This document shows positions 2,755 through 39,153 of a stretch of DNA of 64,000 nucleotides, piece by piece. Position numbers and translations under genes: made by a program. Source of the DNA: Candidatus Woesebacteria bacterium (lineage in GTDB: Bacteria > Patescibacteriota > Microgenomatia > UBA1400 > MFAQ01); the NCBI GenBank assembly GCA_035389185.1, contig DAOORK010000001.1:510218-574217 (forward strand). Direction: 5' to 3'. Below the pieces are notes generated by a model. That model saw only the letters and a list, made by a program, of their open reading frames with translations. It ran no database searches and was not told the DNA's origin. Every line of letters begins with the position of its first letter. The first letter of the stretch is position 1.

Positions 2755-2817
2755 CGGGAAAGTATATTTTATCTATAGTGTAGATAGGTCCGTTTTATTG
2801 GACCGCTAATTAAGCGC

Positions 2818-4485
2818 ATGGATGATCAAAATCAAAATACTCAGCCTTTAGTTTCCGGTACTCCTCCAAACGTTCCCGCCATGCCTGAGGATATAACTCC
2901 GCAGACACCTCCACAGACCGCTATTCCTCCAGTAGAAACTCCTGAACCGGAAACACCTTTTGTCCCTTCTCAGCCAGGACCAATGACAACAACCACAACA
3001 GTAACCTCGACAGAGCCAGTTGAAGTTCCTCCGATGACAACTCCCATTGATACTCCTACTGAGGAGTCTCCTGTTCCGATACCCGCACCGATGACAACAG
3101 AAACAACGACTACAACTACGACAGAAACGCCAGTGCCAACTGAAGTACAAATGCCAGCGGCGAAGAAGAAGGTCTCACCGGTAATTTTGGGGGCTTTAGC
3201 CTTGCTTTTGGTGGTCGGTGTGGCTGGGGCAGCCTACTATGTATCAAATCAGTTATCTACTAGACAAGCAGTAGCACCAACAGCGCCGGAAAGTAAACCA
3301 CAGGCGGCGGCACTGTGCCGTTTACTTTATGAAACTCAATGCATTCAAAGAAGTGACTGTGAATGGGATTATGATCATTGTATTTCAAAGATCGTAACAA
3401 CACCAACACCGCCGCCAGCAACAAATAATAGTACTGGTGGTGGTGATAATAATACTAAAACCACAACAACGAGTGGTGAGAGCAGTTCTTCTTTGTATGT
3501 AAGTAAACCAACAGATGGATGCGGCTCAACAGCGTACCACAAATATGACTGCGGAACTCAGTGCTGTCGTACTACATCCACTTATGCCAAAGATGCCAAC
3601 TGCTGTACTACAGGCTGTAAGGAGCCAGACTCAAGCGGGATATTAAATGGAGCAGAAGAAAAACTGTGGTGTGAAAGTGATACGATCGATCAGTTCCAAG
3701 AGGCAAATCAGATTACTTTTAAAAGAACCGGAACGGCGGCTATTTATTTGAGTGGTACTTTTCATTACAAAGTGAGTCTAACCAAAAAGAGTGGAGATGG
3801 AGCGGCGAGTTTTTCTATCCCCTCTTCGGGTGACTATGTCGTTGGTGGAACTTCTTATACTATCGGCACGGTAAGTGCGGGGTCTGTGTACACGATGAGT
3901 ATTACTTTGAAAGAGGATGTCGATGTGAGTCGTGGTGCGTCTTTGGGTTGGAGAAAACCAAAGTCTGTGCAGACAGCACACCCTTCGTGTGACGCGTCGG
4001 GTACAGTGACAAAGGCGAGTGCTTTGTTTGATCTTAAAACCGAAACAACAGATGTTGATTATCCGGTGATGTGCTGGGCTGACTCGATCATTACTGGCGG
4101 ACCCGATCAGAGCATGGCGGAAAAATATGACTTTGATGACTTCACTGTTGCTGTTGGTTACTCATCTTCGACAACAGTTGGAATGTGTTCGAAGATCAAT
4201 ATCTACAAATACGACACAGCAACAAGTGCATATAGCTCCACAGCACTGACAGCCACCGAACTACAGAATCTTCATATTGGTGATGTTTTGCAATTCGAAA
4301 TGGAAGCAAGTATGGAGAACTTAAGCGGAAAATTTAGAGTGACCACCAACGGATCTGCCGGAGACTGGCTGACAGCAAGAGAAAAAACGACGTCAAATTG
4401 GACTAAGTTGGTTTATTATCCATACACCATATCAGCTTTGGGCGCGTATTCTTTTGAAGGTCAAGTTACTACCACTGCACAATAA
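2818..4485 (+). CDS. Pro/Thr-rich membrane-anchored, Cys-rich extracellular protein (hypothetical)
   Basis: 555 aa; N-terminal P/T/E low-complexity, TM (VILGALALLLVVGVAGAAYYV), then motif QLSTRQAVAPTAPESKP shared with next gene; many Cys clusters (CRLLYETQCIQRSDCEWDYDHC; DGCGSTAYHKYDCGTQCCR...CCTTGC). Confidence 0.5.
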   Translation: MDDQNQNTQPLVSGTPPNVPAMPEDITPQTPPQTAIPPVETPEPETPFVPSQPGPMTTTTTVTSTEPVEVPPMTTPIDTPTEESPVPIPAPMTTETTTTTTTETPVPTEVQMPAAKKKVSPVILGALALLLVVGVAGAAYYVSNQLSTRQAVAPTAPESKPQAAALCRLLYETQCIQRSDCEWDYDHCISKIVTTPTPPPATNNSTGGGDNNTKTTTTSGESSSSLYVSKPTDGCGSTAYHKYDCGTQCCRTTSTYAKDANCCTTGCKEPDSSGILNGAEEKLWCESDTIDQFQEANQITFKRTGTAAIYLSGTFHYKVSLTKKSGDGAASFSIPSSGDYVVGGTSYTIGTVSAGSVYTMSITLKEDVDVSRGASLGWRKPKSVQTAHPSCDASGTVTKASALFDLKTETTDVDYPVMCWADSIITGGPDQSMAEKYDFDDFTVAVGYSSSTTVGMCSKINIYKYDTATSAYSSTALTATELQNLHIGDVLQFEMEASMENLSGKFRVTTNGSAGDWLTAREKTTSNWTKLVYYPYTISALGAYSFEGQVTTTAQ

Positions 4486-4490
4486 GAAAA

Positions 4491-5414
4491 ATGAATAACA
4501 AGAAAAAAATACTGGCGATTGTCTTGGTAGCTTTGGTACTAATACTGGGAGGAGCATCAATTTATGTGGCCACACAACTGTCGACAAGACAAGCTGTAGC
4601 CCCTACAGCTCCCGAAAGTAAACCGGCGGCGAGTGAGTCGGCAACAATTGTATGGTCTGATTCATGTGTAGCTACGGCGTCTGCAGTGGCAGTTGCTGAA
4701 AAAACAACTACCATTGAAGGAGTAAAAACAGCATATGAGAACGAAACGACAAATACTGCCGGTAGTTACTCACTAAAGACGGCTATGGATACAGTGGCGA
4801 AGAGCCAAACATATGTTTACGCTATTTCCTTGAAAAATACCGGTGAGGCAACGGCAACCGGAGTAACAATAAAAGATTCTTTAGCTGAAATTACCGAGCT
4901 AACATATGTTGACAAAGTGAGTGGGTGTTCATGGAGTGTTGCCGAAAAGCTTGTAACTTGCAGTACGACAATCAACCCCGATGAGACAAAGACTTTCTCA
5001 TTTAGAGTGAAGACGTCGAGCGATGTAGTTAACGGTGCGGTAATTACCAATACGGCAGCCGTGACTTCGGACAATGCCGGTTCGCTAACCTTAACCAAAG
5101 ATTTACCGGTGAGCACGGTTGTGGGCTGTAATCACACGTGTACCACTGATGAAGAGTGCGGTTCTGGACTTACCTGTGACACAACAACAAACAAGTGTAG
5201 ACTGGCGGCATGTCTTACCGAGTCAGACTGTGTTTGTGCGACTGTTACAACGACTACAACTACAACTGTTGTTACTGCTAGCCCAACAAAAATCGCCACA
5301 ACGGCGGCTACCCCAACTATCTTGCCGGAGACAGGTATCCTTGATCTGCCAGGAATTGCGGCCTTTGGCGGTGGATTGCTTTTGGCAGTAGTAGGAATAC
5401 TCTTAGCGCTGTAA
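4491..5414 (+). CDS. LPXTG(LPETG)-motif cell-wall-anchored surface protein
   Basis: 307 aa; N-terminal TM/signal followed by same QLSTRQAVAPTAPESKP motif as upstream paralog; C-terminal ILPETG (nt 5322-5336) followed by hydrophobic segment GIAAFGGGLLLAVVGILLAL; Cys-rich stalk (CNHTCTTDEECGSGLTCD...). Confidence 0.6.
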   Translation: MNNKKKILAIVLVALVLILGGASIYVATQLSTRQAVAPTAPESKPAASESATIVWSDSCVATASAVAVAEKTTTIEGVKTAYENETTNTAGSYSLKTAMDTVAKSQTYVYAISLKNTGEATATGVTIKDSLAEITELTYVDKVSGCSWSVAEKLVTCSTTINPDETKTFSFRVKTSSDVVNGAVITNTAAVTSDNAGSLTLTKDLPVSTVVGCNHTCTTDEECGSGLTCDTTTNKCRLAACLTESDCVCATVTTTTTTTVVTASPTKIATTAATPTILPETGILDLPGIAAFGGGLLLAVVGILLAL

Positions 5415-5418
5415 AGAC

Positions 5419-6663
5419 ATGAAGATCGCAGTTGTCGGGGGAGGTTTTACCGGAGTTGCCTGTGCTTTGTCTTTGCTGGAAAAAGGAGTTGAGGTGGTTC
5501 TTTTTGAGGAAGGAGAAAAACTGGGAGGTTTGGCGGGTGGTTTTAATCAGGGAACATGGAAATGGGATTTGGAGTTTTTTTATCATCATGTTTTTACAAA
5601 TGACAAAGAGATTGCGGAGCTGGCACGAAAAGTAGATTGGCCAGTAGAGATCAAATCGCCCCTAACCACAAGTTATTTGAAAGGGAAGGAAATCCAACTG
5701 GACACCCCATTGTCTGTTTTGAGATTTTCTCAAATGAGTCTTTGGGGAAGAGTTCGGATGGGACTGGGGCTTTTGATCTTAAAAATGATCCCTAACGGAC
5801 TATTTTTGGAAAAGTATAAGGTGACAGAGACGCTCCCCGGATTGATAGGCAAAGAGGGGTATCGAGTCATCTGGGGAAAACTGATTAAGGCAAAATTCGG
5901 ACCATATACAGAAAAGGTTAACATGGCTTGGTTTTGGGCTAGGGTTGCCAAACGAAGCAGTCGTTTGGGATATTTTGAAGGAGGGTTCCAAAAATTGGCC
6001 GACAAATCCTGGGAAAAAATCACGAATCTGGGAGGAAAAATAAAATTAAAAGAAAAAGTGGCGGAGATAAAACCATCAGAGGGAAAGTGGCTAGTAAACA
6101 AAGAAAAATTTGATGGAGTGGTAGTAACGACGCAGATGCCTATTGCAAAAGACCTATTGGAAGGAGTGGAGGTTCCAAAAATTGACTATCTCTGGGGACA
6201 AACATTGGTTTTGGAAACAAGCAACAAACTAATAAACGGTTATTGGATGAATATTCTGGAAGATAAATGGCCGTTTTTGGTAGCGGTGGAACACACCAAC
6301 ATGATTGACAAAAAAAACTACGATGATAACCGGATTGTGTACTTGGGAAATTATTTGCCAGAAGACAGCAAACAGTTAAAGATGAGCAAAGAAGAACTAC
6401 TGGAAATGTATCTGCCTTTCCTGCGAAAAATAAATAAGAACTTTCATAAAAAGTGGATTAAAAATGTTTTTCTTTTTCGAAAACCATATTCTCAACCAGT
6501 CTTCCCAGTAAATTATTCCCGACAAAAACCGACGACAAAAACAAAGTATCCGGGACTTTATATTGCCAATATGAGTATGGTTTATCCTTTTGATCGAGGA
6601 ACAAATTATGCAGTAAAAATGGGCAATGAGGTAGCCAAACAGGTGTTAACCGATTTAAGATAA
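5419..6663 (+). CDS. FAD/NAD(P)-binding oxidoreductase (amine oxidase / phytoene desaturase-like family)
   Basis: 414 aa; N-terminal Rossmann dinucleotide-binding motif KIAVVGGGFTGVACALSLLEKGVEVVLFEEGEKLGGLAGG. Confidence 0.65.
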   Translation: MKIAVVGGGFTGVACALSLLEKGVEVVLFEEGEKLGGLAGGFNQGTWKWDLEFFYHHVFTNDKEIAELARKVDWPVEIKSPLTTSYLKGKEIQLDTPLSVLRFSQMSLWGRVRMGLGLLILKMIPNGLFLEKYKVTETLPGLIGKEGYRVIWGKLIKAKFGPYTEKVNMAWFWARVAKRSSRLGYFEGGFQKLADKSWEKITNLGGKIKLKEKVAEIKPSEGKWLVNKEKFDGVVVTTQMPIAKDLLEGVEVPKIDYLWGQTLVLETSNKLINGYWMNILEDKWPFLVAVEHTNMIDKKNYDDNRIVYLGNYLPEDSKQLKMSKEELLEMYLPFLRKINKNFHKKWIKNVFLFRKPYSQPVFPVNYSRQKPTTKTKYPGLYIANMSMVYPFDRGTNYAVKMGNEVAKQVLTDLR

Positions 6664-6666
6664 AGA

Positions 6667-8628
6667 ATGGCCAACGGTGATTTTTTGATTATTTTGCAAA
6701 CATATGCCATAAGTTTGGGATTACAGTTTTTGGGATGGCCGTGGGTGAAAAAGTTTTTTGGAAAAATGCCGGACAAGGGGTGGTGCTTGAGCCGAGTATT
6801 CGTTTCTTTGGTAAGTGCCCTGCTTATCTGGCAGTTGTCCTACCTAGGATTACCATCAAATACTCAGGCCGGAGTTTGGGCATTTTTAGTTTTCATCGGC
6901 TTGGCCGATCTATTTCTGATTATTAAAGAGGGTCTGGGAGCAGTCACAATTCCAAGAGGGATTGCGAAACTTGTGTCGATTGAAGAGTATTTGTTTATCA
7001 TTGGATTTGGCGGAATTGCTCTTTTAAGAGCATATGACCCCAGTTTGGACAGCCTTGAGAAATACATGGATTTTGGTTTTGTGAATCAGTACTTGAACTC
7101 ACTTACCTTACCCGCTCTTGATATGTGGCAGGCGGGTCAATCCATAAATTACTACTCTTTTGGACATTTTTGGGCGAGCATTCTGATAAAAATTTGGGGG
7201 GTAAAAGCGGCAGTTGGTTATAACTTAATGTTGGCATTTATTTTTGGGGTTTGTGTCGACCTGGTTTTTATGGCCAGTTATATGTTGACAGGAAAACACA
7301 ACGCCAGGGCGTCTTTGGTAGGAGGCCTGGTAGGAGCTCTATCTGTACTTCTGGCAGGCAACAGTCAAGTAATTTGGTATCTGATTGAAAATCAGAGTTT
7401 AAGTAATTACTGGTATGCCGATGCTACGAGGTTTATTTACAACACAATTCACGAATTTCCCAGCTACAGTTTTGTGGTTTCTGATCTTCATGGACATGTT
7501 TTGGATCTGCCGGTGATTTTGGCGTTTTTGATTGTCCTTTTTGTGTGGATTAAAGACCGAAAAAGAGTTTACGAAATAATCATGGGGTGTTTATTTGGGG
7601 TGATGATGATGACAAACACATGGGATGTGGCTGTCTACGGATTACTTTTGATAGTGTTAAGCGCTCAGATGGCTCTGTCGAACAAAAATAACATTAAGGA
7701 TATTTTGCGAGTAGCAATGATAATGTTTGTGACGATGTTTGCGGTGGCAATACCGTGGGGGTTGAAGTTTATTCCGATTTCAAACGGAATAGGAATAGTA
7801 AGTGCGAGGTCTCCTCTTTGGCAGTTGGCTGCTCTGTGGACAGGAGGAATAATCGTCAGTTTCGTGGCGGTAATTACTGAAGGAAAGGGTGAAAATCGTC
7901 ATTTGGTGAGAACCTTAATGATTACGGCGCTACTATTGATTGCCATTCCGGAGTTTGTTTTTGCCAGAGACATTTATGCTACTTATCCTAGGGCGAACAC
8001 GATGTTTAAACTAACTTATCAGGCCTTTATCATGATGGGAATACTGGCTGGATATTGTTGGGGGAAACTGCTAGATCGGGAAGTAAAAATGCCCATTGTT
8101 TGGAGGTTTGGAGCATTCTTTGCCGTGTTTTGGATATTTGTAGGAACAATGGTTTTCCCATTTGAAGCGTTTCCAACTTACTATGGCGGATTTAAAAATT
8201 ATCAAGGCTTGGATGGGGAAAAATGGATGGAGACAAAGATGCCGGAAAATTATGGAGCAATTAAATATCTCCAAGAAAACAGGAACGGCAAAAATATGGT
8301 TGAAGCTGTAGGTGAAAGCTATACCCTGCAAAATGCGGTATCGGTATTTTCGGGAGTACCAACCATCCAGGGTTGGAGAGTTCATGAATGGCTGTGGAGA
8401 GGAGGTTTTGGGGTGGTAGCCGAAAGACAGGACGAGGTGACTGAGATATATCAGGGCGAAGATCTTGGAGACACCGCGGAGATATTAAAGAAATACAATG
8501 TTGGCTGGATTTTGGTTGGACAAGACGAAAAGATATCGTATCGGATAAACGAAGAAAAACTATGGCAGTTCGGGGAAGTAGTTTGGAGTACCGGTGAGAC
8601 TTATCTAATCAAGATAACCCACTATTGA
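6667..8628 (+). CDS. large polytopic membrane protein (DUF2298 / GT-C-like putative glycosyltransferase)
   Basis: 653 aa; >10 predicted TM helices over first ~500 aa followed by soluble C-terminal domain; architecture typical of GT-C fold/DUF2298 proteins; 3-bp gap after FAD oxidoreductase. Confidence 0.45.
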   Translation: MANGDFLIILQTYAISLGLQFLGWPWVKKFFGKMPDKGWCLSRVFVSLVSALLIWQLSYLGLPSNTQAGVWAFLVFIGLADLFLIIKEGLGAVTIPRGIAKLVSIEEYLFIIGFGGIALLRAYDPSLDSLEKYMDFGFVNQYLNSLTLPALDMWQAGQSINYYSFGHFWASILIKIWGVKAAVGYNLMLAFIFGVCVDLVFMASYMLTGKHNARASLVGGLVGALSVLLAGNSQVIWYLIENQSLSNYWYADATRFIYNTIHEFPSYSFVVSDLHGHVLDLPVILAFLIVLFVWIKDRKRVYEIIMGCLFGVMMMTNTWDVAVYGLLLIVLSAQMALSNKNNIKDILRVAMIMFVTMFAVAIPWGLKFIPISNGIGIVSARSPLWQLAALWTGGIIVSFVAVITEGKGENRHLVRTLMITALLLIAIPEFVFARDIYATYPRANTMFKLTYQAFIMMGILAGYCWGKLLDREVKMPIVWRFGAFFAVFWIFVGTMVFPFEAFPTYYGGFKNYQGLDGEKWMETKMPENYGAIKYLQENRNGKNMVEAVGESYTLQNAVSVFSGVPTIQGWRVHEWLWRGGFGVVAERQDEVTEIYQGEDLGDTAEILKKYNVGWILVGQDEKISYRINEEKLWQFGEVVWSTGETYLIKITHY

Positions 8629-9692
8629 GTACCGTTGAGACGATTGGCGGTGTATTGCTTAAGGGCCGACCAGTTGTTATCTTTGGGTATGAGGACCCAA
8701 GCCCCTTTGTAAGCCGCGGTAGGTGGATTGTAGAGGATGGTAACACCGTTCTCATCGGGAAGGTCGGAGATACCAAAAGACTTTAAGGGATTATCTTTTG
8801 TTTCTAGAGCGACCTTGGCCAAGGTGGGGTAGAGAGAGTGATCAATATTTGTTTTGAGATTTGAGTCGAGAATGGAGAAAAATTGATCGACTTTGTTTTG
8901 GTCTAGAAGGAAGCTGGGGGTAAGCATTTTTTGTTTGAGAGCAGTGATCACCTGCTGTTGTCTATGAGAGCGGGCGAAGTCTGTACCCTCGTCCCCTTCC
9001 GAGTGGCGGGAACGAACAAATTTGAGAGCAGTTTCGCCATCGAGGTGGGCTGAGCCTGTGGCAAAAGTGATGGTTTCAAAGCGACTGGAAATAGGGAGAG
9101 AGTCTTCTTTGCCGGGGATAGGAAACTCGGTGTCGGTAAAACCGGGATCGATGTTGATATCGATACCACCGAGAAGGTCGATAGTTTCTTTGAAAATAGT
9201 GAAGTTGATAACGGCAGTGTAGTGAATGGGCAAACCAAGATCTTCAAGAATGGCTGCCTGAGACATTTTGATTCCCGCTCCGGGACTTGCTTCCTCTCCA
9301 TAGTAATAAGCAGTATTAATTTTTGCCTGGAGTGAAGGAACCCAGAGATCCCGAGGAATACTGATAAGGGTGCCTGTTTTTGATTGATGATTGTAAGACA
9401 AGACAATAATAGTGTCGGCAAGATTGGGAGAGTCGGTGCCCTCACCTCGAATGCCAAGAATAAGAAAGTTGGTGACACCGTTGGTGTTGTCTAGATTTCC
9501 GGCTGGTGTGCCAAAGAAACTTAGTAGATCTTGAGGTTTGAGGTGAAGACCGGCAAGATATCCCATCCCCTTCCAACCAAAGAACCCGAGTATAGCGACG
9601 AGGAGGGCAAGAAAGAGAAAAAGAAGATGACGTCTAATAAAGGAAGCAAAGCGAATAAAAAGCCGGCCTGATCTGAGATGGCTGAGTTTCAT
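8622..9692 (-). CDS. LytR-CpsA-Psr (LCP) family cell-envelope polymer transferase
   Basis: 356 aa; N-terminal TM then LCP core (FLILGIRGEGTDSPNLADTIIVLSYNHQSKTGTLISIPRDLWVP...INTAYYYGE...YTAVINFTIFKETIDLLGGIDINID); start ATG overlaps tpiA stop (TAATG). Confidence 0.8.
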   Translation of the reverse strand: MKLSHLRSGRLFIRFASFIRRHLLFLFLALLVAILGFFGWKGMGYLAGLHLKPQDLLSFFGTPAGNLDNTNGVTNFLILGIRGEGTDSPNLADTIIVLSYNHQSKTGTLISIPRDLWVPSLQAKINTAYYYGEEASPGAGIKMSQAAILEDLGLPIHYTAVINFTIFKETIDLLGGIDINIDPGFTDTEFPIPGKEDSLPISSRFETITFATGSAHLDGETALKFVRSRHSEGDEGTDFARSHRQQQVITALKQKMLTPSFLLDQNKVDQFFSILDSNLKTNIDHSLYPTLAKVALETKDNPLKSFGISDLPDENGVTILYNPPTAAYKGAWVLIPKDNNWSALKQYTANRLNGTQ

Positions 9693-12408: not shown

Positions 12409-13425
12409 GTGATAGAGGAAGTTTCAGAAAAAAATAAAAAACAGTTCAACGACATCGCCCGACACCCCCTGCAGTCTTGGGAATGGGGTGAGTTTCGCCG
12501 AGAAACTGGGGTTGGCCTGTCTCGATTGCTGGAGAAAAAAGGAAAAACAAAAGAAGTGTTTCAAATAACCTGGCACACAATTCCGTACACCAAGTGGTGT
12601 GTTGGATACTGCCCGAAGTCAGCTATTCCCGATAATGAAGCAATAAATAAAATAAAACAGTTGGCAGCAAAAAAGGGAGCCATTTTTGTCAAATTTGAAC
12701 CGAATGAAAAAATTTCACCAGAAACAAAAATGAAGATTGCCTTACTTTCCAAACACTTTAATTGGGTAAAGGGGAAATCACTTTTTACAAAGTATACTTT
12801 TCAACTGGATATTGCAAAGAGTGAGGAAGCTCTGTTGGCCGGTATGCACCAAAAAACTCGATATAATTTGAGACTGGCCGAGAAGAAAGGGGTAAAGATC
12901 GTGGAAGATAGTAGCGAACAAGGTTTTGAAGAGTACTGGAAATTAATGGAGGATACGACAAAAAGACAGGGTTTTTATGCGCACTCTAAAGGTTATCACC
13001 GGAAAATGTGGAAGAATATGACTGAGTCGGGTATGGGCCATCTGTTTAAGGCTGTGTGGCAAGGTCAGACTTTAACTACGTGGATGGTTTTTATTCTGAA
13101 TGGAGTGCTTTACTATCCTTACGGGGCTTCGAGCAACGAACACCGAGAGGTGATGGCCAGTAACCTAATGATGTGGGAAGTAATTCGCTATGGTAAAAAA
13201 CTGGGGTGCAGTCTGTTTGATATGTGGGGCAGTTTGGGACCAGTTCCTGATGTCCGCGACCCATGGTATGGATTTCATCGTTTCAAACAGGGGTATGGGG
13301 CGGAGTTGATTGAGTTTGTGGGAAGTTATGATTTGGTAGTGAGACCAGGGCTTTATCAAGTCTACGGACTGACAGATAAGGTGAGATGGCTTGGACTGAA
13401 ATTATTGGCCGGTGTCCGAAAGTAG
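12409..13425 (+). CDS. FemAB-family peptidoglycan interpeptide-bridge aminoacyltransferase
   Basis: 338 aa, GTG start; FemABX-like N-terminal (QSWEWGEF), central KTRYNLRLAEKKGVKI and acceptor-site region typical of Fem/MurM family. Confidence 0.55.
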   Translation: MIEEVSEKNKKQFNDIARHPLQSWEWGEFRRETGVGLSRLLEKKGKTKEVFQITWHTIPYTKWCVGYCPKSAIPDNEAINKIKQLAAKKGAIFVKFEPNEKISPETKMKIALLSKHFNWVKGKSLFTKYTFQLDIAKSEEALLAGMHQKTRYNLRLAEKKGVKIVEDSSEQGFEEYWKLMEDTTKRQGFYAHSKGYHRKMWKNMTESGMGHLFKAVWQGQTLTTWMVFILNGVLYYPYGASSNEHREVMASNLMMWEVIRYGKKLGCSLFDMWGSLGPVPDVRDPWYGFHRFKQGYGAELIEFVGSYDLVVRPGLYQVYGLTDKVRWLGLKLLAGVRK

Positions 13426-14247
13426 ATGGAGGATATCCGACAAACAAAAGGGTGGAGAGGACACCTTAAACATAGGGGGTGGAAGACAATAAATATAAAG
13501 GCAGCAGACGACAAACACACAATACAGGTATTTGTTTTTCGTCTTAAACCTTGGCCATTTTCGATGATGAAAGTTCAGAGAGCAAATTTCGACCCTGATT
13601 TTGAGGAGTTAAAAAAAATTAAGAGAAAATATTGGGTGGCAAACTCGGTAATTGAACCGGTAAGGGTGGAAAATCCAAAGAGATACAAAATAGCGGGATA
13701 CCACATAACAAGATTCCCCTTTTTGGCAATGAGTACCTATATTAACGATCTGCAAATGACAGAAAAGGAACTCTGGAATGGTTTGTCGAAAAACGCACAA
13801 CGGTTAATAAAAAAGAATCAGAAAGTAGAAATAGAGGAGGCTGACCCAAAACTATTTTGCCAATTGTGGAAAGCATGCTCAAAAATATGGATTATGCCGT
13901 TTAAAGAAACAGAAAACTTACTAAATAGTTTTAAAGGGAGAGCAAGACTGGTAGTCAGCAGAAAAGGAGATGAGTACCATTCGGGCCTAATGGTAATTTA
14001 TTCAAAAGATACAGCCAATTATTACCAGACATGGACCAATGAGAAAGGCAGAAAAAGCGGAGCTCATTACAAGCTGGTCTGGGAAGAGATGTTACGGGCT
14101 AAAAGGAACGGTTTGAAGTACTTTGATTTTGAGGGCACTTTTGACGAACGCTGGCCACAAAAAAGATGGGTGGGTTTTACAGACTTTAAGAGGAGGTTTG
14201 GAGGTAAGTTGGTACAGTTCCCGGGAAGCTTTTTTCGGTGGTTTTGA
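13426..14247 (+). CDS. FemAB-family paralog (second tandem copy)
   Basis: 273 aa; stop of upstream gene directly abuts ATG (TAGATG); LSKNAQRLIKKNQKVEIEE and C-terminal FDFEGTF..F.RRFGG motifs as in FemAB family. Confidence 0.5.
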   Translation: MEDIRQTKGWRGHLKHRGWKTINIKAADDKHTIQVFVFRLKPWPFSMMKVQRANFDPDFEELKKIKRKYWVANSVIEPVRVENPKRYKIAGYHITRFPFLAMSTYINDLQMTEKELWNGLSKNAQRLIKKNQKVEIEEADPKLFCQLWKACSKIWIMPFKETENLLNSFKGRARLVVSRKGDEYHSGLMVIYSKDTANYYQTWTNEKGRKSGAHYKLVWEEMLRAKRNGLKYFDFEGTFDERWPQKRWVGFTDFKRRFGGKLVQFPGSFFRWF

Positions 14248-17148: not shown

Positions 17149-20100
17149 ATGAATAAATCGCCGATGGTTCAACGTGCACAAACGAAGATAATTAAGAGTA
17201 TTTTTGTTGTTTTATTGGGAGTGCTTCTGACAACTTCTTTGTTTTTCTATAAAGTTTGGTTTAGTGCAGTTAGTGTTTGGGCAGATAGCTTAACTTGGAA
17301 TTTCTCAACAACCACTGATTACACATATAACTCAGCAAAAATTAGTGTGGTTAATGGAGGTGCTTATCTGGCTTCACCGTCTGGGTGGTATGACTCAAAA
17401 TGGCTGTATCGGAAAGCAATAACAATCGACAATACGGCTTTGGGCACAGTATTGAGTAATTATCAGATCGATGTGGATCTTGACTCTTCGAACTTTGACT
17501 TTAGTAAAGCAATGGCCAATGGAGAAGATATTAGAATTACCGACGCCGATGGAGTAACTGTCATTCCGTATTACCTCGAACATTTCAACAATTTAAATAT
17601 GATCACGCAAGGTGTTGAAAATTATGCCGTCGTAAGTGGGGCGGCGGCCTGGTGGCAATTGAGTGCCAACGCAAATGATTCCGGAGAAAATGCCAACAAT
17701 GGTACTCTGGCAGGTAATGCCGCTTTTTTAGGCTCATCACTCAAACTTGACGGAAATGGAGATTACGTAAGCGTTGCGGATAGTGCGAGTCTGGATTTTA
17801 ATTCTTCTTTCACCATCGAACTTTGGGCAAGGCCGGACACTTTACCGGCAAGCGAAACAACTAGACAGTTTATCGCTAAGGGCGGAACAGGTGACGGAAC
17901 GGGAAATGACCATAACTATTACTTTGGTATGGGAAATGCCGACACCGGTTATGGCCTGACCAAGGGTCCGGGGGTGGTTTTTGGTTTTGAAGACTCGGCC
18001 GGAAATAACTATCAAGTAGTTGAGTATATCCAGTTAAATACTGGTCAGTGGTATCACCTGACAGGTGTATTTGACGACACGGCGAATACTTTGAGTATTT
18101 ATATCAATGGAACACTGCTAAAAACTTTATCCAGCGTAACTGCGACACCTTTTACCCAAAATAGCAGCTTGTTAATTGGAGCAAAGCTAACTAGTGCCGA
18201 GTTCTTTGATGGAAGAATAAGAGAGGTAAGAATGTTTAACTCGGCCATATCGGCGAGTCAGATTTTGGCTGATTATCAAACCACCTCACAAAAAGCAAAG
18301 ATTTGGGTCAAAGTGCCATCGATTCCGGCAAGCTCAACAAAAACTATTTATCTATATTACGGATTAAATTCAACAACTAATCTTAAGGCAGGGTTGATTT
18401 CGGACGTACACGGTTTTTCGGATAATGGAGATAAAAAAGGAGTTCAGGCAACAGACTATTTGACTGACTATATAAACAGAATGAACAATTCATTTGTCCC
18501 GGATGTTTCTGTTGATCTGGGCGACAAGATTACCACAGTTGATCAAGCCACAGATATCACTGATTTGACAACCGTCTCGGGAATATTTGGCAATCTGACC
18601 AGTCCGCATTACTATACTTTGGGAAATCATGAAGTAGCCAATTTAACTAAGACACAGGTAAAGACTGCTCTGGGAATAGACTACACTCGAAAGTCGGTGG
18701 ATGTTGGCAATTACCACATCATTGTCCTTGACTCACAAGATACCGAACAAGCAGACCCTTGGGGTGGAGCTCTGACCGAGGCTGACAAAACTTGGCTAAC
18801 CACGGAATTGGCGGCCACCAGTAAAAAAACACTGGTGTTTTCGCATCAACCTCTCGACACCCAAAATATGGCTTTGAATCAGTATTTTGCGACTAGTGAC
18901 GATGTGTTTCTGGCCAATGCCGCCGACGTCAGAGCCATATTGGAAAACGATGGTGACGTGATCGGAGTTTTTAGCGGGCATCTCCACTGGATCAACAAGT
19001 CGATAATTAACGATATCCCTTATTTTTCTTTAGGGTCGCTGGTTGAGGACTACGGTAAAAACTGGGTAGAAGCTTCAATTGTCGGTAATCAATTTTTGAA
19101 TATTGTCTTTAAACAAAATGGAGAAACGGAGAGATTGATGATCTGGGATTTTGTTAATCACATAGAATTAAACAAGCCATCGACAGCTTTTGATTTTTAT
19201 GACAGTTTTGAGGGAGACAGCGGTCAATGGGCGGAGTTGACCGGACTTACGGGAGGAAACTGGTCAATCTCGGGCAAGGGCTATTTGCAAGAAACAGGTA
19301 CAGCTACAGGACAACACAAAATCCTTAATTCGAGCTACTCGGAACCTGCCAACTATATTATCGAGGCTAATATTGGTCTTTATGGAACAACTGTTGGCCG
19401 AACCCAGTTGGGAGGTTTTGCCTCAAGAATAACAAATAGTACAAACTTTGATGCTATCTACATGGCTAACGATGCCGATGATGATATCCGCTGGAAACAG
19501 ATGGATAACACTACATGGGAGTTGATTGGTCAACAAGCAACTTTTACACCGGATACGTATTGGCATCAGTTAAAGATGGTGAAGCTGGGTAATCAAAGAA
19601 TAGTTTATCTAGATGGAGCACAACAGTTTGATTTAACCAACGCTGATTTAGCTGATGGCACTTTTGGTTTGTGGACATATTTTGACAGTATTCAGTACGA
19701 CAATTTGAAAATTCTTCCCTATGTCGCAACCGAACCAACAACCAGTGTTGGCTCTGAAGTTTTGATTTACCCAAACGACGACCCAACCATTGTTCCGGTA
19801 ACTCCGATAACATTTAACTCAATCTCCAGTTTTACGGAAACAGCAACTAAAAATGATGGCGAGATTAAATACCAAATTTCAAACGATGGCGGAACAACTT
19901 GGTATTGGTATAACTCCGGATGGACAACAACAGTAACAGGCTATGCCGAAGCAAACACAGCTACTGTAATAAACTCAAACATCGGTTCTTTCCCGGAAGG
20001 TGATGGTTCTTTCCTTTTTAGGGCATACCTTCACTCAGATGGAACAGATTTAGTAACGCTGGACGCTGTGGACTTAACTTATGTATTGGACGTGACTGCT

Positions 20101-33659: not shown

Positions 33660-33667
33660 TAATATTA

Positions 33668-33691
33668 CCGCTCCTTTGGGGGCGGTTTTTT
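33668..33691 (+). terminator. rho-independent terminator
   Basis: CCGCTCC-ttt-GGGGGCGG (one G-U) followed by TTTTTT. Confidence 0.55.
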
Positions 33692-33707: not shown

Positions 33708-34484
33708 ATGCTAATTGATACACATTGTCATCTGACTGACGAGAGATTTACGGATGTGAGGGAAGTAATAAGAGAGGCTAAGAAAAATGGAGTGGGAAAA
33801 ATCTTTATTCCTGCCACTAGTGTGGAAGACGCTAAAAGAGCTGTGGTAATTGCGGAACAAGAAAATTTGTACGCTATGGTTGGAGTACACCCAGAGGAGA
33901 TTGATTCTGTGGACGATGTTGAGGGGATGATATATGAGTTGGAAGAGTTGGTCGGAAAGTCAGAGAGAATAATTGGAATCGGCGAAATCGGTTTGGATTT
34001 TTTCTGGGATAAAGAAAAGAAGACAAAAGAAAAACAAATGAAAGTTTTTGCGGCACAGATGGAGTTGGCAGTTCGTTTGAAATTGCCTGTAGTGATCCAC
34101 ATGAGAGAAGCAGAAGAGGAAATGCGAATGATTTTGGACAAAATGGAGAAGCTGCCGAGAGGAGAGTTCCATTGCTTCGCCGGAGGAGAAGAGTTTTTGG
34201 AGTATATCTTGGAAAAAGGTTTTTATGCGGGGTTTGACGGGAATATTACTTATAAAGGTGCACAGAGTTTACGCAATCTGATACACAAAGTGCCTCTGAC
34301 TCGCCTGCTTTTGGAGACTGATAGTCCCTATTTAACGCCAGAACCATTACGAGGAACGGTTAATAAGCCTAGTAATGTTAAAATAGTAGCTACAGCCATA
34401 GCCTGCCAGCTGAACATAGATACCGAAAAATTAATTCAACAAACCGGAAATAACGCAATATGTTTGTACTCCTTAGATATCTAA
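33708..34484 (+). CDS. tatD: TatD-family metal-dependent DNase/hydrolase
   Basis: MLIDTHCHL start motif, GEIGLD, HCF.G; start moved from 33690 (inside terminator T-tract) to ATG 33708. Confidence 0.85.
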   Translation: MLIDTHCHLTDERFTDVREVIREAKKNGVGKIFIPATSVEDAKRAVVIAEQENLYAMVGVHPEEIDSVDDVEGMIYELEELVGKSERIIGIGEIGLDFFWDKEKKTKEKQMKVFAAQMELAVRLKLPVVIHMREAEEEMRMILDKMEKLPRGEFHCFAGGEEFLEYILEKGFYAGFDGNITYKGAQSLRNLIHKVPLTRLLLETDSPYLTPEPLRGTVNKPSNVKIVATAIACQLNIDTEKLIQQTGNNAICLYSLDI

Positions 34485-35965
34485 TAAAGAAGTATCCCCA
34501 TGGTAGTCAAAGAATTTTAGAAATATTGCCAGGCTTTGTAAGCTGGATGTTTATCCTTTTCCCTATTTGGGGTTCAATATTTTGGCCTGTTGGAGTAGCT
34601 TACTTCATCATTAGTTTTAACGTTTATTGGCTTTATCGATCTTTGACGCTGTCAATTGCTTCGGTGATGTCATATTACCGAATCAAGGCCGCAGAGAAAT
34701 ATGATTGGATGGGAGATGTTGCCGGATTTGCAGACTGGAAAGAAGTAAAGCACGTGATCGTCTTACCAACATACAAAGAACCCGGTGACATCTTGGTACG
34801 TACCTTGGATGCCTTGGAAAAACAAACCATTGGCGCGAAACAGATAATCCCCTTAATCGCAATGGAAGTGAGAGCCGGTGAAGAAATGAATGCGAGTAGG
34901 GTAAAACAGTTGCGAGATAAATTTGAAGGAAAATTTGCCGACTTGATGTTTACATACCACCCTGCGAATTTAACCGGTGAGGTGGTTGGGAAATCTTCGA
35001 ATGCTGCCTGGGCGGGGATGGAACTTCGAAAGGAACTTAAGAAACATGCGGACTGGGATATAAACAAAATGACGATTTCTTCTGTGGACTGTGACGTGGC
35101 ACTTCACCCGAATCATTTGGCGGCTTTGACATATATGTTTTTGGATGACCCGAATCGATATCACAAGATCTGGCAAGGAGCGATCGTCTTTTACAACAAT
35201 ATTGAGCGTATTCCGTGGCCCATGAGAGTGTTTAACCGCATCGCCTCGGTAAACAATATGGCCCAGCTTTCACGACCAGATCGCTTAATTAATTTTTCTA
35301 CTTATTCATTGAGTTTGAAGTTGATGGATGACATTGATTACTGGGATACCGATGTTATTCCAGAAGACTATCGTATTTTCTTTAAAACTTACTTTGCTAC
35401 CGAAGGGAAGATTGAGGTAGAACCTTTGTATATTTCTGTTTCTGCCGATGCAGCTGAAGCAGAAGGTTTCCGAAACACTTTTACCAACACATACGAACAG
35501 GTAAAGCGTTGGGCTTGGGGAGCAAGTGATGACTCTTACATAATTAAGCGATACATCATGGATGACAAAGCTCCTTTTTGGGACAAAACAATTAGAGTTT
35601 TCAAGGTAATTGAAGATCACTTTATGTGGCCGGTAAATTGGTTCATTATTACTGTTGCCGCAAATCTACCGCCGCTTCTAAACCAGACGTTTTCGAGAAC
35701 AGTGATGGGCAAAACATTACCTCAGGTATCATCGGCAATTTTGACGCTGTCGCTGGTTAGTTTGGTGGCCATGATCTTTATCGATATGAAAGCAAGACCA
35801 AAAGTCGAAGGATTGCCATTATGGAGAAAGATATTCTCGCCTTTTGAGTTTGTACTTTTACCGGTAGTAGGTTTCTTTTTCTCAGCTCTACCTGGACTTG
35901 ATGCCCATACCAGACTGATGATGGGAAGATATCTGGAGTACCGGGTTACCGAGAAAAAAGCATAA
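34460..35965 (+). CDS. membrane-embedded processive family-2 glycosyltransferase (cellulose/chitin-synthase-like)
   Basis: 501 aa; N-terminal TMs, GT-A core (VLPTYKEP, DCD as DXD, EDY), signature QVKRWAWG (Q-x-x-R-W), C-terminal TMs; 25-bp overlap with tatD. Confidence 0.6.
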   Translation: MFVLLRYLIKKYPHGSQRILEILPGFVSWMFILFPIWGSIFWPVGVAYFIISFNVYWLYRSLTLSIASVMSYYRIKAAEKYDWMGDVAGFADWKEVKHVIVLPTYKEPGDILVRTLDALEKQTIGAKQIIPLIAMEVRAGEEMNASRVKQLRDKFEGKFADLMFTYHPANLTGEVVGKSSNAAWAGMELRKELKKHADWDINKMTISSVDCDVALHPNHLAALTYMFLDDPNRYHKIWQGAIVFYNNIERIPWPMRVFNRIASVNNMAQLSRPDRLINFSTYSLSLKLMDDIDYWDTDVIPEDYRIFFKTYFATEGKIEVEPLYISVSADAAEAEGFRNTFTNTYEQVKRWAWGASDDSYIIKRYIMDDKAPFWDKTIRVFKVIEDHFMWPVNWFIITVAANLPPLLNQTFSRTVMGKTLPQVSSAILTLSLVSLVAMIFIDMKARPKVEGLPLWRKIFSPFEFVLLPVVGFFFSALPGLDAHTRLMMGRYLEYRVTEKKA

Positions 35966-35979
35966 CAATTAATGGAAAT

Positions 35980-36303
35980 ATGTTTGTAAGTATATTTTGG
36001 ATTGGAATGGCACTCATTGGAATGATGGGCGGAGTGTTGGCTATTTTCTGGAAAAGCTTGCCTCCACAACTCCCCTGGTTTTATTCTCTGCCTTGGGGAG
36101 AACAACAACTGGTAAACAAGATGTGGTTTGTGTGGATCTTGGCGGGAATGGCAGTTTTGCTTTTTTTGACTCGGATAATAGCCAGATGGGCAGGCAAAGA
36201 TGACACTACCGTAAAAACACTCATCATGAGTGGTGGATTATTGGCCGTACTGTTGATGACCGCCAGTTTTGTCAGAATTATGATGATCTTTTTGAACCTA
36301 TGA
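35980..36303 (+). CDS. small membrane protein (hypothetical)
   Basis: 107 aa, 3 TM; 4-bp overlap with next gene. Confidence 0.4.
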   Translation: MFVSIFWIGMALIGMMGGVLAIFWKSLPPQLPWFYSLPWGEQQLVNKMWFVWILAGMAVLLFLTRIIARWAGKDDTTVKTLIMSGGLLAVLLMTASFVRIMMIFLNL

Positions 36304-37373
36304 ATCCGGTAATGATGATTACCGTGGCTCCATTTGTATTGTCACTTGTTATCAGTTTGATGATGACCCCCCTAACAATTGCTTGGTTTAAGAAAAAGGG
36401 ATGGATGATTGACCCGAAGAAAACTCCCCATCCGGCACATATTCATAAGGAGCCGGTTCCCAAAGGCGGAGGTATTCCCATTTTTTTGGCAGTGACGATC
36501 ACAATGCTGCTTCTTTTGAGGCCAGATCGACATCTGATTGCTATCTGTTTGGCAGGACTGGTGGCTTTGATTGTGGGTGTGATTGACGACATCAAGAGTT
36601 CAAGTCCTTACTTACGTTTGCTGATGAACTTTGTGGTGACCTTGATTATTGTGGCCTCGGGTATTGGAATTGCTTACATTACAAATCCTTTGGGGGGAGT
36701 GATTGATCTCTCTTGGCCAAGACTGGGTCTTGACCTGCTCGGCAAACACCATGAGATATGGATTTTGGCTGATCTGTTTGCTTTGCTGTGGATTCCGTCA
36801 TTGATGAACGCAATTAACTGGTCTTCGGGAGTTGATGGTCAAATTAGCGGGGTAGTGACCGTGGCCGCCATTACCTTGGGTTTGATTTCTTTAAACTTTA
36901 GCGCGGATATTACGCAGTGGCCGGTAGCAACACTGGCTTTTGCGACGGCTGGGGCTTTTGCCGGATTAACGGTATTCCATTTTTATCCTCAAAAGATAAT
37001 GCCCGGCTACTCGGCGACCTCACTGGCAGGTTTGTATCTTGGGGTGGTGTCTATCTTGGCAACAGCAAAAGTGGGGGCATTGATCATTGTTTTGGGAATA
37101 CCCCTCATTGATTTTGCTTATTTGACAGTTAAGAGGATCGTGTCCGGAAAAGCTCCGGTATGGGGAGACAAAAGTCATCTGCACCACAAATTATTGGCCA
37201 TGGGGTGGGGAAAACGAAGAATTTCGTTGTTTTATTGGATGGCAGCAGTAGTCCTCGGGGTGGCTGCTTTGAGCTTTGAAGCTAGAACAAAGCTTATAAT
37301 CATGATAGGATTGGTAGTATTAATGATGGTTTTCTGGATATGGCAATACTTCTCGCATTATTCAAAACAGTAA
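36300..37373 (+). CDS. MraY/WecA-family polyprenyl-phosphate N-acetylhexosamine-1-phosphate transferase (GT4)
   Basis: 357 aa; 10-11 TM; motifs DDIKSSSPYLRLL (DDxxD), NAINWSSGVDGQISG (NxxNxxDGxDG), HKEPVPKGGG cytoplasmic loop. Confidence 0.6.
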   Translation: MNPVMMITVAPFVLSLVISLMMTPLTIAWFKKKGWMIDPKKTPHPAHIHKEPVPKGGGIPIFLAVTITMLLLLRPDRHLIAICLAGLVALIVGVIDDIKSSSPYLRLLMNFVVTLIIVASGIGIAYITNPLGGVIDLSWPRLGLDLLGKHHEIWILADLFALLWIPSLMNAINWSSGVDGQISGVVTVAAITLGLISLNFSADITQWPVATLAFATAGAFAGLTVFHFYPQKIMPGYSATSLAGLYLGVVSILATAKVGALIIVLGIPLIDFAYLTVKRIVSGKAPVWGDKSHLHHKLLAMGWGKRRISLFYWMAAVVLGVAALSFEARTKLIIMIGLVVLMMVFWIWQYFSHYSKQ

Positions 37374-38272
37374 GACCGAGACAGTGGCTAAAAAACTTAG
37401 CTCTGTATGCGGCTCTGGTTTTTACGGGAATGCTGTTTACAGAAGGAGCTTTTGGTTTGGTTACTCAGGCAGTATTGGTGTTTATTGTTTTGTCTAGCAG
37501 TACCTATATCTTCAACGATTTGGTGGATGTGAGGGCCGATAGATTGCATCCATATAAAAAAAGAAGACCGATCGCATCCGGGGCATTACCCGTTCCGGTG
37601 GCTGTGTTGGTGCTGGTTTTGGGAGTAGTACTCGGTTTGACTTGGGCTTATGGTCTGAATAGTTATTTTTTCATTTGCTGTTTAGTTTATTTGGGCGTGC
37701 AGGTACTTTATTCGGGATATCTAAAGAAAGTAGCTATTATGGACGTGATTGTGATTGCCTTTGGGTATCTGATACGGGCATATGCGGGAGCATTTGTAAT
37801 ATCTGCCCATATGGATGTGTGGTTTTTGTTAACGATGATTTCGGTGTCTTTGTTTTTGGCTGTAGGAAAGAGAAGAGGAGAGATGACTTTACTGATGTCT
37901 CGAGGAGAAGGGGTGGCTACCAGAGAAGCCTTGAAGCGATATACCGAGAAATTGTTGGACATTTATACGGCCATGTTTGCTACAGCAACATGGATAACTT
38001 ATGCACTGTTTACCTTCAACCACCCAAAGATTGTGCCCGACGGCAGAGCTTTATCGATGATTTCCTTACTGCCAAAAACGCTAATATCCGAAAAATGGAT
38101 GATGGCTACGATTCCTTTTGTGGTCTACGGAATCATGAGGTATTTACAGTTGATTTACGAGAAAAACGAGGGGGAAAGTCCGGAGAGAGTGCTTTTGTCC
38201 GACAAACCCTTGATTATTACCGTCCTTTTGTGGGGGATAGTAACAATCGGAGTGCTTTACTATATTGCCTGA
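37340..38272 (+). CDS. UbiA-family prenyltransferase, decaprenyl-phosphate 5-phosphoribosyltransferase-like
   Basis: 310 aa; N-terminal KTVRPRQWLKNLALY and NDLVDVRADRLHPYKKRRPIASG (NDxxDxxxDRxHPxKxxRP) closely resemble Rv3806c-type DPPR synthases; 34-bp overlap with upstream gene. Confidence 0.6.
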   Translation: MAILLALFKTVRPRQWLKNLALYAALVFTGMLFTEGAFGLVTQAVLVFIVLSSSTYIFNDLVDVRADRLHPYKKRRPIASGALPVPVAVLVLVLGVVLGLTWAYGLNSYFFICCLVYLGVQVLYSGYLKKVAIMDVIVIAFGYLIRAYAGAFVISAHMDVWFLLTMISVSLFLAVGKRRGEMTLLMSRGEGVATREALKRYTEKLLDIYTAMFATATWITYALFTFNHPKIVPDGRALSMISLLPKTLISEKWMMATIPFVVYGIMRYLQLIYEKNEGESPERVLLSDKPLIITVLLWGIVTIGVLYYIA

Positions 38273-38274
38273 GT

Positions 38275-39153
38275 TTATTTCACTAGTTTGGCGTAGGTGG
38301 TAGAGACGTATCCCCATTCACCGTCGGTGTATTCGATGTAGTACCAGCCAGTAGTGTCAGATTCTTTGTAGGGGAATTTGTCACCGGGATTGACCTTAGC
38401 AAGCTCATTGGCAGATGTGGAAGCGGATTCACGGACTTTGAGCCAACCGGTTGGAGTAGTAAGAATCTCGACATAAGGTTTGGCAACAACGGCCGAAGAG
38501 GTGGCTTGTTTGGGAAGAGGAGTGACTGTGGTATTTTTGCTCAAAGTTGGCGTGGCTGAAGGAGTGGCAATGGTGGGTGTGGGGGTAGGGGTGATGTCCA
38601 GAGCCGCCATAGTGAAGTTTAGGAGCAAACGATAACCAGGCTGAACATTGGCATTGATGATTTTGTCTTGGTAACCTGGAGCAGTAAAGGTAAAGACGTG
38701 GGGACCAGAGTCAATATCAATATTTAGAGGAGTAAAGTCGTTTGGCTGACCATCAATACTGGTCGTGGCATTTGAAGGTAGACTAACAACACTTACGGCC
38801 GAAGCCTTGCTACTACTGAGCTTTTCAAAAGAGAGTGAGTAACTATGTGATTTATCTTGGGTTTCACCAAACTCACGATGAACTGTGGACAGAGTGCCAC
38901 CTAAGAGATTTATCTTGGTTTCCCATGTCTGGCCGCTATCAATGGCTGTCATTTGAATCGTGTAGCTACCGGCGTTTTTGTTAGCAGCGTAGTAAGGGGT
39001 TTTGCCGACGGACTCACCGTTTATCACGACATTAGCGTCGGGATGGGCAGTGACTTGAATACCGGCTTTTTTGGCGAAGGGATTGAGATTGCACCCAGCG
39101 AGAAGAAGAGAGAATACGGAGACGGCTACGAGCCTAAAATAGTTAGTCTTCAT
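38275..39153 (-). CDS. lipoprotein with PEGA domains and C-terminal SH3b domain
   Basis: 292 aa; signal + LLAGC lipobox; PEGA-like (VVINGESVGKTPYY...; FTFTAPGYQDKIINANVQPGY); C-terminal SH3b (GWLKVRESAS...GWYYIEYTDGEWGYVS). Confidence 0.55.
   Translation of the reverse strand: MKTNYFRLVAVSVFSLLLAGCNLNPFAKKAGIQVTAHPDANVVINGESVGKTPYYAANKNAGSYTIQMTAIDSGQTWETKINLLGGTLSTVHREFGETQDKSHSYSLSFEKLSSSKASAVSVVSLPSNATTSIDGQPNDFTPLNIDIDSGPHVFTFTAPGYQDKIINANVQPGYRLLLNFTMAALDITPTPTPTIATPSATPTLSKNTTVTPLPKQATSSAVVAKPYVEILTTPTGWLKVRESASTSANELAKVNPGDKFPYKESDTTGWYYIEYTDGEWGYVSTTYAKLVK

Follow-up and report, generated by a model that had tools for sequence, protein, structure and literature searches.

Pentofuranose systems that depend on a polyprenyl-phosphate 5-phosphoribosyltransferase (PPPRS) are known in Pseudomonas, Citrobacter, Xanthomonas, Bacillus and a phage (PMC11127046). 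Kelly et al. 2024 showed biochemically that ORF15 of Citrobacter makes polyprenyl-phospho-ribofuranose, which is used after flipping by a glycosyltransferase of the C type (GT-C) belonging to family GT136; epimerases (DprE1/DprE2 or ORF13) turn such a donor into arabinofuranose or xylofuranose, and in P. aeruginosa the PPPRS serves the D-arabinofuranose of pilin (PMC11127046). Here we describe a UbiA-family gene (37340-38272) and the tightly packed gene cluster to which it belongs, in a 64-kb stretch of DNA from a Candidatus Woesebacteria bacterium (assembly GCA_035389185.1, contig DAOORK010000001.1, positions 510,218 to 574,217), hereafter called the window. On sequence grounds, it is well supported that this gene encodes a PPPRS similar to Rv3806c, the decaprenyl-phosphate phosphoribosyltransferase (DPPRS) of M. 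tuberculosis.

The host belongs to the candidate phyla radiation (CPR; Patescibacteria), bacteria with minimal genomes that are attached to host cells and whose envelope chemistry is hardly known. Comparison with the mycobacterial route to decaprenyl-phosphoryl-arabinose places the window protein in the same subfamily as Rv3806c, with identical contact residues, and neither enzyme carries a fused phosphatase. A primer enzyme of the WecA type, GT-C transferases and a LytR-CpsA-Psr (LCP) ligase are likewise found in the CPR organism or its lineage. In contrast, genes for DprE1/DprE2 epimerases, an Rv3807c-type PAP2 protein and GT-Cs of the Emb/Aft families are absent from the window; gene negatives reported here cover all open reading frames (ORFs) of the window and about 10 kb beyond each of its ends, together about 84 kb out of roughly 0.9 Mb in the genome. 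The carrier lipid is presumably C55 rather than the mycobacterial C50, and the CPR gene is coupled to genes for a member of the polyprenyl-phosphate N-acetylhexosamine-1-phosphate transferase (PNPT) superfamily and a hyaluronan synthase (HAS)-like enzyme, whereas the mycobacterial one is coupled to glf/glfT2. The small genome of the CPR host sets the two systems apart as well.

The ORF15-ORF14-ORF12 system of Citrobacter youngae O1/O2 follows the same logic, in that the polyprenyl-phospho-ribofuranose made by a PPPRS is consumed by a GT-C outside the cytoplasm. Most CPR relatives also encode a GT-C within the PPPRS operon, and without epimerases the sugar would stay ribofuranose. The CPR cluster differs by the lack of a HAD-type PRP domain or MATE flippase, by a new small protein with three transmembrane (TM) segments encoded between the GT-C and PNPT genes, and by its GT-C, which is ArnT/PMT-like rather than an assigned member of GT136; the operon of the window has no GT-C at all. 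It is, moreover, a core lineage-wide feature and not a serotype-variable add-on. The GT-C of related CPR operons is structurally nearest to ArnT, whose donor is also a polyprenyl-monophosphate pentose; however, undecaprenyl-phospho-L-Ara4N is made from a UDP-sugar by the family 2 glycosyltransferase (GT2) ArnC, not by a UbiA-type transferase using phosphoribosyl pyrophosphate (PRPP), and its acceptor is lipid A.

A sequence-only reading of this stretch had regarded such a pathway as unexpected outside Actinobacteria. That view is out of date, given the non-actinobacterial PPPRS systems (PMC11127046) and the thousands of CPR homologues, some of which PGAP or JGI already call decaprenyl-phosphate phosphoribosyltransferase. 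The three-component combination of a PPPRS, a flippase and a GT-C outside Actinobacteria was published in 2024, backed by experiments in Citrobacter (PMC11127046), and the cluster described here joins these known systems. Its CPR-specific features are the obligate coupling to a PNPT enzyme and a HAS-like synthase, the novel small membrane protein, and the lack of a recognisable phosphatase or flippase. Our literature search found no paper tying decaprenyl or PPPRS enzymes to CPR.

Identification of a PPPRS candidate

Two NCBIfam models of decaprenyl-phosphate phosphoribosyltransferases, NF008977 and NF008978, matched the UbiA-family protein with 213.4 and 204.1 bits, respectively, whereas the best NCBIfam model for UbiA enzymes of quinone, haem, chlorophyll or archaeal-lipid synthesis reached only 47.8 bits. 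The top match in the PDB was 8j8j, the cryo-EM structure of M. tuberculosis Rv3806c (E 5.7e-36, about 240 residues aligned), and the next UbiA relative, 4od4, followed at only E 5e-3. The proposal of the sequence-only reading that the gene is Rv3806c-like, and not of the quinone or haem type, is thus borne out, and the motifs to which it had pointed, RPRQWLKN and NDLVDVRADRLHPYKKRRPIASG in the UbiA-family protein and QVKRW in the GT2, were indeed found in the translations.

In Rv3806c, the pyrophosphate of PRPP is bound by R22, K87, R90, K143 and Y138, Mg2+ and the ribose by N73, D77 and Q135, and the 5-phosphate by K28, Y70 and Y157; the phosphoribose sites K28, Y70, Q135 and Y157 are not conserved by other UbiA enzymes (PMC10994848). 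In an HMMER alignment, the window protein has the same amino acid at all 11 of these substrate sites, where R22, K28, Y70, N73, D77 and K87 correspond to R12, K18, Y56, N59, D63 and K73, and R90, Q135, Y138, K143 and Y157 to R76, Q121, Y124, K129 and Y143. Among 81 CPR sequences the 11 sites were invariant except for Q121 (Q/N/H/S) and Y143 (Y/F), and the change from Y to F at the position equivalent to Y157 also occurs in mycobacteria (PMC10994848). Where prenyltransferases have their second DxxxD motif, the window protein has GKRRGE, which may be compared with GKRYAE in Rv3806c, and the 310 residues leave no extra (phosphatase) domain. Taken together, these data argue well for a PPPRS, and the product of 37340-38272 would be expected to transfer phosphoribosyl groups from PRPP and to yield a polyprenyl-linked lipid product.

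Genes coupled to the PPPRS gene

Five genes follow one another on the plus strand in the order tatD, GT2, small membrane gene, Glycos_transf_4 and UbiA. The sequence-only reading had them all overlapping by 4-34 bp, which is true of three junctions out of four (25 nt for tatD/GT2, 4 nt for the small gene and the Glycos_transf_4 gene, 34 nt for the latter and the UbiA gene), while the GT2 and small genes are separated by a 14-nt spacer.

The GT2 carries the DxD (D210, D212), PEDY (E302, D303) and QVKRW (Q347, R350, W351) motifs, which were invariant in 24 homologues. A Foldseek search with its AlphaFold2 model (pLDDT 87.7) returned Chlorella virus HAS (TM-score 0.55-0.57), BcsA and Xenopus HAS1 as top matches (E about 1e-9, TM-score up to 0.57). 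The model points to a processive synthase integrated in the membrane, of the hyaluronan/cellulose-synthase type; the protein shares the fold and the DxD, ED and QxxRW motifs with HAS and BcsA, although identity to them is only 12-16% and no PilZ or c-di-GMP module is present.

The small protein had no match in Pfam or NCBIfam. It contains a conserved loop motif, LPPxLPWFYSLPWGEQQL, and belongs to a CPR-restricted family whose genes, orthologous by position, directly precede that of the PNPT in related loci. A search of cluster representatives gave 428 for this family; the genuine ones among the matches listed are stand-alone proteins of 75-152 aa, with no domain fusion among them. It may be an accessory or flippase-like subunit.

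The protein encoded by the Glycos_transf_4 gene scored 65.6 bits with the WecA model TIGR02380 (cut-off 326) and 50.2 bits with that of MraY (cut-off 192), and in the PDB it matched MraY (3e-8) and GPT (8e-4). From these scores it is classed as a PNPT superfamily member and not as a WecA or MraY equivalog. Its DKSHLHHKLL motif, which we take to be WecA/TagO-like, lets it read as a candidate polyprenyl-phosphate N-acetylhexosamine-1-phosphate transferase of that kind.

Conservation in CPR genomes and the GT-C missing from the window operon

Scanning the GTDB species representatives with narrow search patterns gave at least 227 genomes with a close relative, of which the best 80 were compared. 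Judged by the informative record titles, the best 80 of the 227 are apparently all Patescibacteria (Collier-, Woese-, Chisholm-, Pace-bacteria and relatives). Many third-party assemblies whose synteny is clearly of the Patescibacteria type go under the title "uncultured Pseudomonadales bacterium", and some under Spirochaetia, Vitreimonas or Limisphaerales, probably because the names are placeholders or the records were mis-binned.

In the best 80 of the 227 genomes, the order MetRS-TatD-GT2-(GT-C)-small-PNPT-PPPRS-(PEGA/SH3)-GAPDH-PGK was conserved, a recurrence far beyond chance. The PNPT gene lies directly upstream of the PPPRS gene: in 73 of the 74 informative loci, its end and the PPPRS start are at most 150 nt apart.

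In 36 of the 38 more distant loci (PPPRS identity below 66%), the GT2 and small genes enclose a gene whose product, about 505 aa long, has an invariant EPxWYGDE loop. Examples are L047:5115-6632 and L055:5053-6585, and 39 further related loci have it. Single-sequence searches of Pfam and NCBIfam with this protein were mostly empty and a PDB profile search gave nothing, so that the family was recognised as GT-C from precomputed or partial PMT/PMT_2 matches together with structure prediction. Members have occasional PMT and PMT_2 matches in Pfam and names such as "phospholipid carrier-dependent glycosyltransferase", and the model (pLDDT 91.6) was structurally closest to ArnT, followed by STT3/AglB/PglB, DPY19, Pmt4, PimE and EmbB. 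According to the model, the family is an ArnT-like GT-C. The ArnT donor is a polyprenyl-monophosphate pentose, which makes an ArnT-like GT-C the natural consumer of the predicted PPPRS product.

In the window's own clade, this gene was missing from 24 of 24 informative loci, and neither tblastn nor a hidden Markov model built from other CPR lineages detected a homologue of the operon GT-C in the 64-kb window. The clade of the window has thus lost the operon GT-C cleanly, with the other genes kept. A polyprenyl-phospho-pentose donor feeding a membrane glycosyltransferase, as put forward in the sequence-only reading, is the best interpretation in the light of most related CPR operons and of the L155 locus described below; the window operon itself does not contain the glycosyltransferase part.

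FAD oxidoreductase, DUF2298 protein and LCP ligase

Elsewhere in the window, the genes of an FAD oxidoreductase and a DUF2298 membrane protein share a strand and are 3 nt apart, in agreement with the coupling noticed in the sequence-only reading, and an LCP gene faces them. The module FAD oxidoreductase-DUF2298-LCP (reverse)-TIM-UvrD is conserved in CPR; both the DUF2298-LCP adjacency and the three-gene module are kept down to about 30% identity, and distant genomes have one or two PMT_2-type GT-C genes between the FAD oxidoreductase and DUF2298 genes.

DprE1 is a flavoenzyme of the vanillyl-alcohol oxidase (VAO) type. The window protein is of the amine-oxidase/NAD_binding_8 type, with weaker partial matches to HpnE, CrtI and protoporphyrinogen oxidase, and its PDB matches, to protoporphyrinogen oxidase, FMO and CrtI-type enzymes, are limited to the N-terminal Rossmann region. 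A DprE1 homologue was therefore rejected, Pfam, NCBIfam and PDB searches all placing the protein in the amine-oxidase/protoporphyrinogen oxidase/CrtI superfamily. The DprE-type oxidation step proposed in the sequence-only reading falls with this assignment to the protoporphyrinogen/phytoene-desaturase superfamily. Sugar oxidation and modification of the polyprenol carrier are both possible roles for the flavoprotein.

The locus L155:1408-7992, on an 845-kb contig of another CPR lineage, contains co-directional overlapping genes for a PPPRS-like UbiA protein (43% identity), a GT-C-like protein (461 aa), a PMT_2 GT-C (565 aa), a PAP2 protein and a DUF2298 protein; no FAD oxidoreductase gene is present in this operon. 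By its gene content the set resembles Rv3806c/Rv3807c and would link DUF2298 to a lipid-pentose route. In an alignment-based hhalign comparison, the C-terminal domain was the only part of the DUF2298 protein to match the ArnT-like GT-C family of the operons, pairing with the C-terminal domain of that family (probability 80.5%, E 1.3e-5); started from one sequence, hhalign gave no significant match, and PDB searches by phmmer and profile returned nothing meaningful for DUF2298. A GT-C that uses the lipid-pentose donor in the window organism is a reasonable but unproven role for the DUF2298 protein.

Proposed pathway and alternatives

We propose that the PPPRS would move ribose-5-phosphate from PRPP to polyprenyl phosphate, giving polyprenyl-phospho-ribofuranose-5-phosphate, and that dephosphorylation and flipping would yield an extracytoplasmic pentofuranose lipid donor. 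The WecA/TagO-like enzyme, translationally coupled to the PPPRS, may place an N-acetylhexosamine-1-phosphate on the same lipid carrier, and the HAS/cellulose-synthase-like GT2 together with the CPR-specific 3-TM protein would complete the cluster. In most lineages the ArnT-like GT-C encoded in the cluster is the expected user of the lipid-pentose donor. Because the window clade lost this GT-C from its operon, the user must be encoded elsewhere, and the DUF2298 protein beside the LCP ligase would be the best candidate within the window. As no epimerase genes were found in the window and flanks, the sugar is more likely ribofuranose than arabinofuranose. Overall, a lipid-ribofuranose donor made by a PPPRS within a Patescibacteria-wide envelope-glycopolymer cluster, with its GT-C user located elsewhere in this clade, appears to us reasonably probable.

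Under this proposal, a large part of the CPR radiation, with at least 227 species representatives, is predicted to keep a PRPP-dependent enzyme for a lipid-pentofuranose donor. With the PPPRS locked to a lipid-carrier primer enzyme and a processive synthase, one would expect a surface polymer decorated with pentofuranose, which could mediate host attachment or phage recognition. The PPPRS, the ArnT-like GT-C and the small 3-TM protein are assayable targets, and the annotation of CPR proteins as decaprenyl-phosphate phosphoribosyltransferase is biochemically plausible with no implication of arabinan synthesis.

Several observations weigh against the proposal. The PPPRS scores lie just under the NCBIfam equivalog cut-offs (213.4 against 234 and 204.1 against 207); together with a further NCBIfam comparison, at 152.4 bits against a cut-off of 474, these scores are consistent with near misses of a divergent orthologue. 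The operon of the window has no GT-C of its own, nor does it contain a recognisable PAP2 or HAD phosphatase or a member of a known flippase family (MATE, SMR or GtrA type). DUF2298 is encoded 29 kb away from the cluster, and what connects it to PPPRS is one locus plus a C-terminal profile match of 80% probability. The housekeeping genes MetRS, GAPDH and PGK share the same CPR-wide synteny, and since the whole region is syntenic, adjacency alone is weak evidence of shared function. Finally, about 84 kb were inspected, and epimerases, a PRPP synthetase or a relocated GT-C may be encoded elsewhere in the genome.

The neighbourhood also bears on a different explanation, in which gene order is frozen in reduced genomes and the genes serve separate pathways, the PNPT priming a teichoic-acid-like or other wall polymer, the GT2 making an independent exopolysaccharide and the PPPRS acting in an unrelated modification. 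MetRS, TatD, GAPDH and PGK are equally conserved there, the window clade lost the GT-C yet retained the other genes, and the GT2, at about 90% identity, is far above its neighbours, which suggests different constraints. Nevertheless, coding overlaps of 4, 25 and 34 nt survive about 50% sequence divergence, four to five consecutive membrane glycan enzymes, either polyprenyl-phosphate-dependent or membrane-acting, are unlikely to be unrelated, and the GT-C is inserted exactly within the block in 36 of 38 lineages, so that we consider separate pathways rather unlikely. Far less room is left for an ordinary aromatic or lipid prenyltransferase (MenA, UbiA, CyoE or DGGGP-synthase type) misassigned by likeness of motifs. 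Pfam recognises only the generic UbiA family (residues 27-172), the NDxxDxxxD motif is common to all UbiA enzymes, and JGI labels many homologues 4-hydroxybenzoate polyprenyltransferase; but with models of the quinone, haem, chlorophyll and archaeal-lipid enzymes at or below 48 bits against 213 for DPPRS, with all four phosphoribose residues kept that other UbiA enzymes do not conserve (PMC10994848), and with the second DxxxD replaced as in Rv3806c, such a misassignment is extremely improbable.

The question of an arabinose route of the actinobacterial style, also part of the sequence-only reading, was considered separately. Here, oxidation and reduction at C2 would give polyprenyl-phospho-arabinofuranose, with the FAD oxidoreductase as a non-homologous analogue of DprE1 and DUF2298 as the arabinosyltransferase. 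Its appeal lies in the recurrence in CPR of the closely spaced FAD oxidoreductase-DUF2298 pair, at times with PMT_2-type GT-Cs in between, in the LCP ligase adjoining DUF2298, a type of ligase that arabinogalactan needs, and in the L155 operon, where DUF2298 accompanies a PPPRS-like gene and PAP2 in the manner of Rv3806c/Rv3807c. However, the FAD protein matches PRK07233 at 368 bits with no similarity to VAO-type DprE1, and relatives of this FAD family use isoprenoid chains or amines, not sugar hydroxyls. Neither a DprE1-like FAD_binding_4 protein, nor a DprE2-like short-chain reductase or other epimerase gene, nor a PAP2 (Rv3807c-type), HAD or Prs gene was found in the window and about 20 kb of flanks, and the very operon that joins PPPRS to DUF2298 in L155 does so without an FAD oxidoreductase. 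We therefore judge the arabinose route very unlikely. Improbable too, if somewhat less so, is a broader scheme in which a core and possibly essential glycopolymer, linked to the wall, is made throughout the Patescibacteria by a hybrid route without a described counterpart, with a TagO/WecA-like primer enzyme, a HAS-like polymerase, a PRPP-derived lipid-pentofuranose donor and a flippase-like 3-TM protein united in one operon, and with the recurrent FAD oxidoreductase-(GT-C)-DUF2298-LCP module, as a non-homologous replacement of DprE1/DprE2 or a modifier of the carrier lipid, finishing the polymer and attaching it to peptidoglycan.

Neighbouring genes and other features of the window

Positions of the features discussed, in window coordinates, with the matches on which their assignment is based.
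Feature	Position	Strand	Basis or context
FAD oxidoreductase	5419-6663	+	Pfam Amino_oxidase E 1e-19; NF005560 (PRK07233) 368 bits, cut-off 252
DUF2298 / Chlor_Arch_YYY polytopic membrane protein	6667-8628	+	Pfam DUF2298 E 8e-79; TIGR03662 389 bits
LCP (LytR-CpsA-Psr) glycopolymer-to-peptidoglycan ligase	8622-9692	-	Pfam LytR_cpsA_psr E 1.6e-31; convergent with DUF2298
Terminator-like hairpin, 8-bp stem with 6 GC pairs, T-run	33667-33686	+	3' of a 119-aa ORF, just 5' of tatD
tatD, TatD/YchF-family metal-dependent hydrolase	33708-34484	+	Pfam TatD_DNase E 4e-73; TIGR00010 249 bits, cut-off 206
GT2, predicted membrane-integrated processive synthase, 501 aa	34460-35965	+	Pfam Glyco_trans_2_3 E 1e-8
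Small membrane protein, 107 aa, 3 predicted TM	35980-36303	+	No Pfam/NCBIfam family
PNPT-superfamily protein, 357 aa	36300-37373	+	Pfam Glycos_transf_4 E 2e-19
UbiA-family protein (predicted PPPRS), 310 aa	37340-38272	+	NCBIfam DPPRS models; PDB 8j8j
PEGA + SH3_3 lipoprotein-like protein	38275-39153	-	Pfam PEGA, SH3_3; convergent with the UbiA gene

The hairpin upstream of tatD marks the 5' boundary of the tatD-led cluster; a promoter scan gave hits no more frequent than in shuffled sequence. The MetRS-TatD adjacency is kept among related loci, and tatD, a housekeeping gene travelling with metG, is probably a passenger in the transcript and not a glycan enzyme. Between metG and tatD, the segment 33300-33686 holds the 119-aa ORF, which belongs to no family, and the strong terminator-like hairpin. 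Since just a few nucleotides separate metG from tatD in the closest relatives, the ORF and hairpin look like a lineage-specific insertion.

On the other side, the PEGA/SH3_3 gene is separated from the PPPRS gene by a 2-nt gap and is conserved beside the UbiA gene in most related loci; its product may be a partner of the cluster that binds or is associated with the wall. About 8 kb past the right end of the window lie dnaA and dnaN, the genes of the replication origin.

Other parts of the window probably encode envelope proteins too. A row of Big_13, fn3 and DUF11 proteins (1381-5414) precedes the FAD oxidoreductase gene, and a 1698-aa surface protein with Laminin_G_3, DUF2341, metallophosphoesterase, fn3 and CarboxypepD_reg domains is encoded at 17149-22245; both are probably adhesin-like. 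Two tandem genes of the FemAB family, which comprises peptidoglycan interpeptide-bridge transferases, are found at 12409-14247, downstream of a gene for a UvrD/PcrA-like helicase. Lastly, the GC content dips to 0.35 at 24001-26151, against about 0.43, around a DUF3800 gene and ORFs without a family, and this segment may be a small acquired island.

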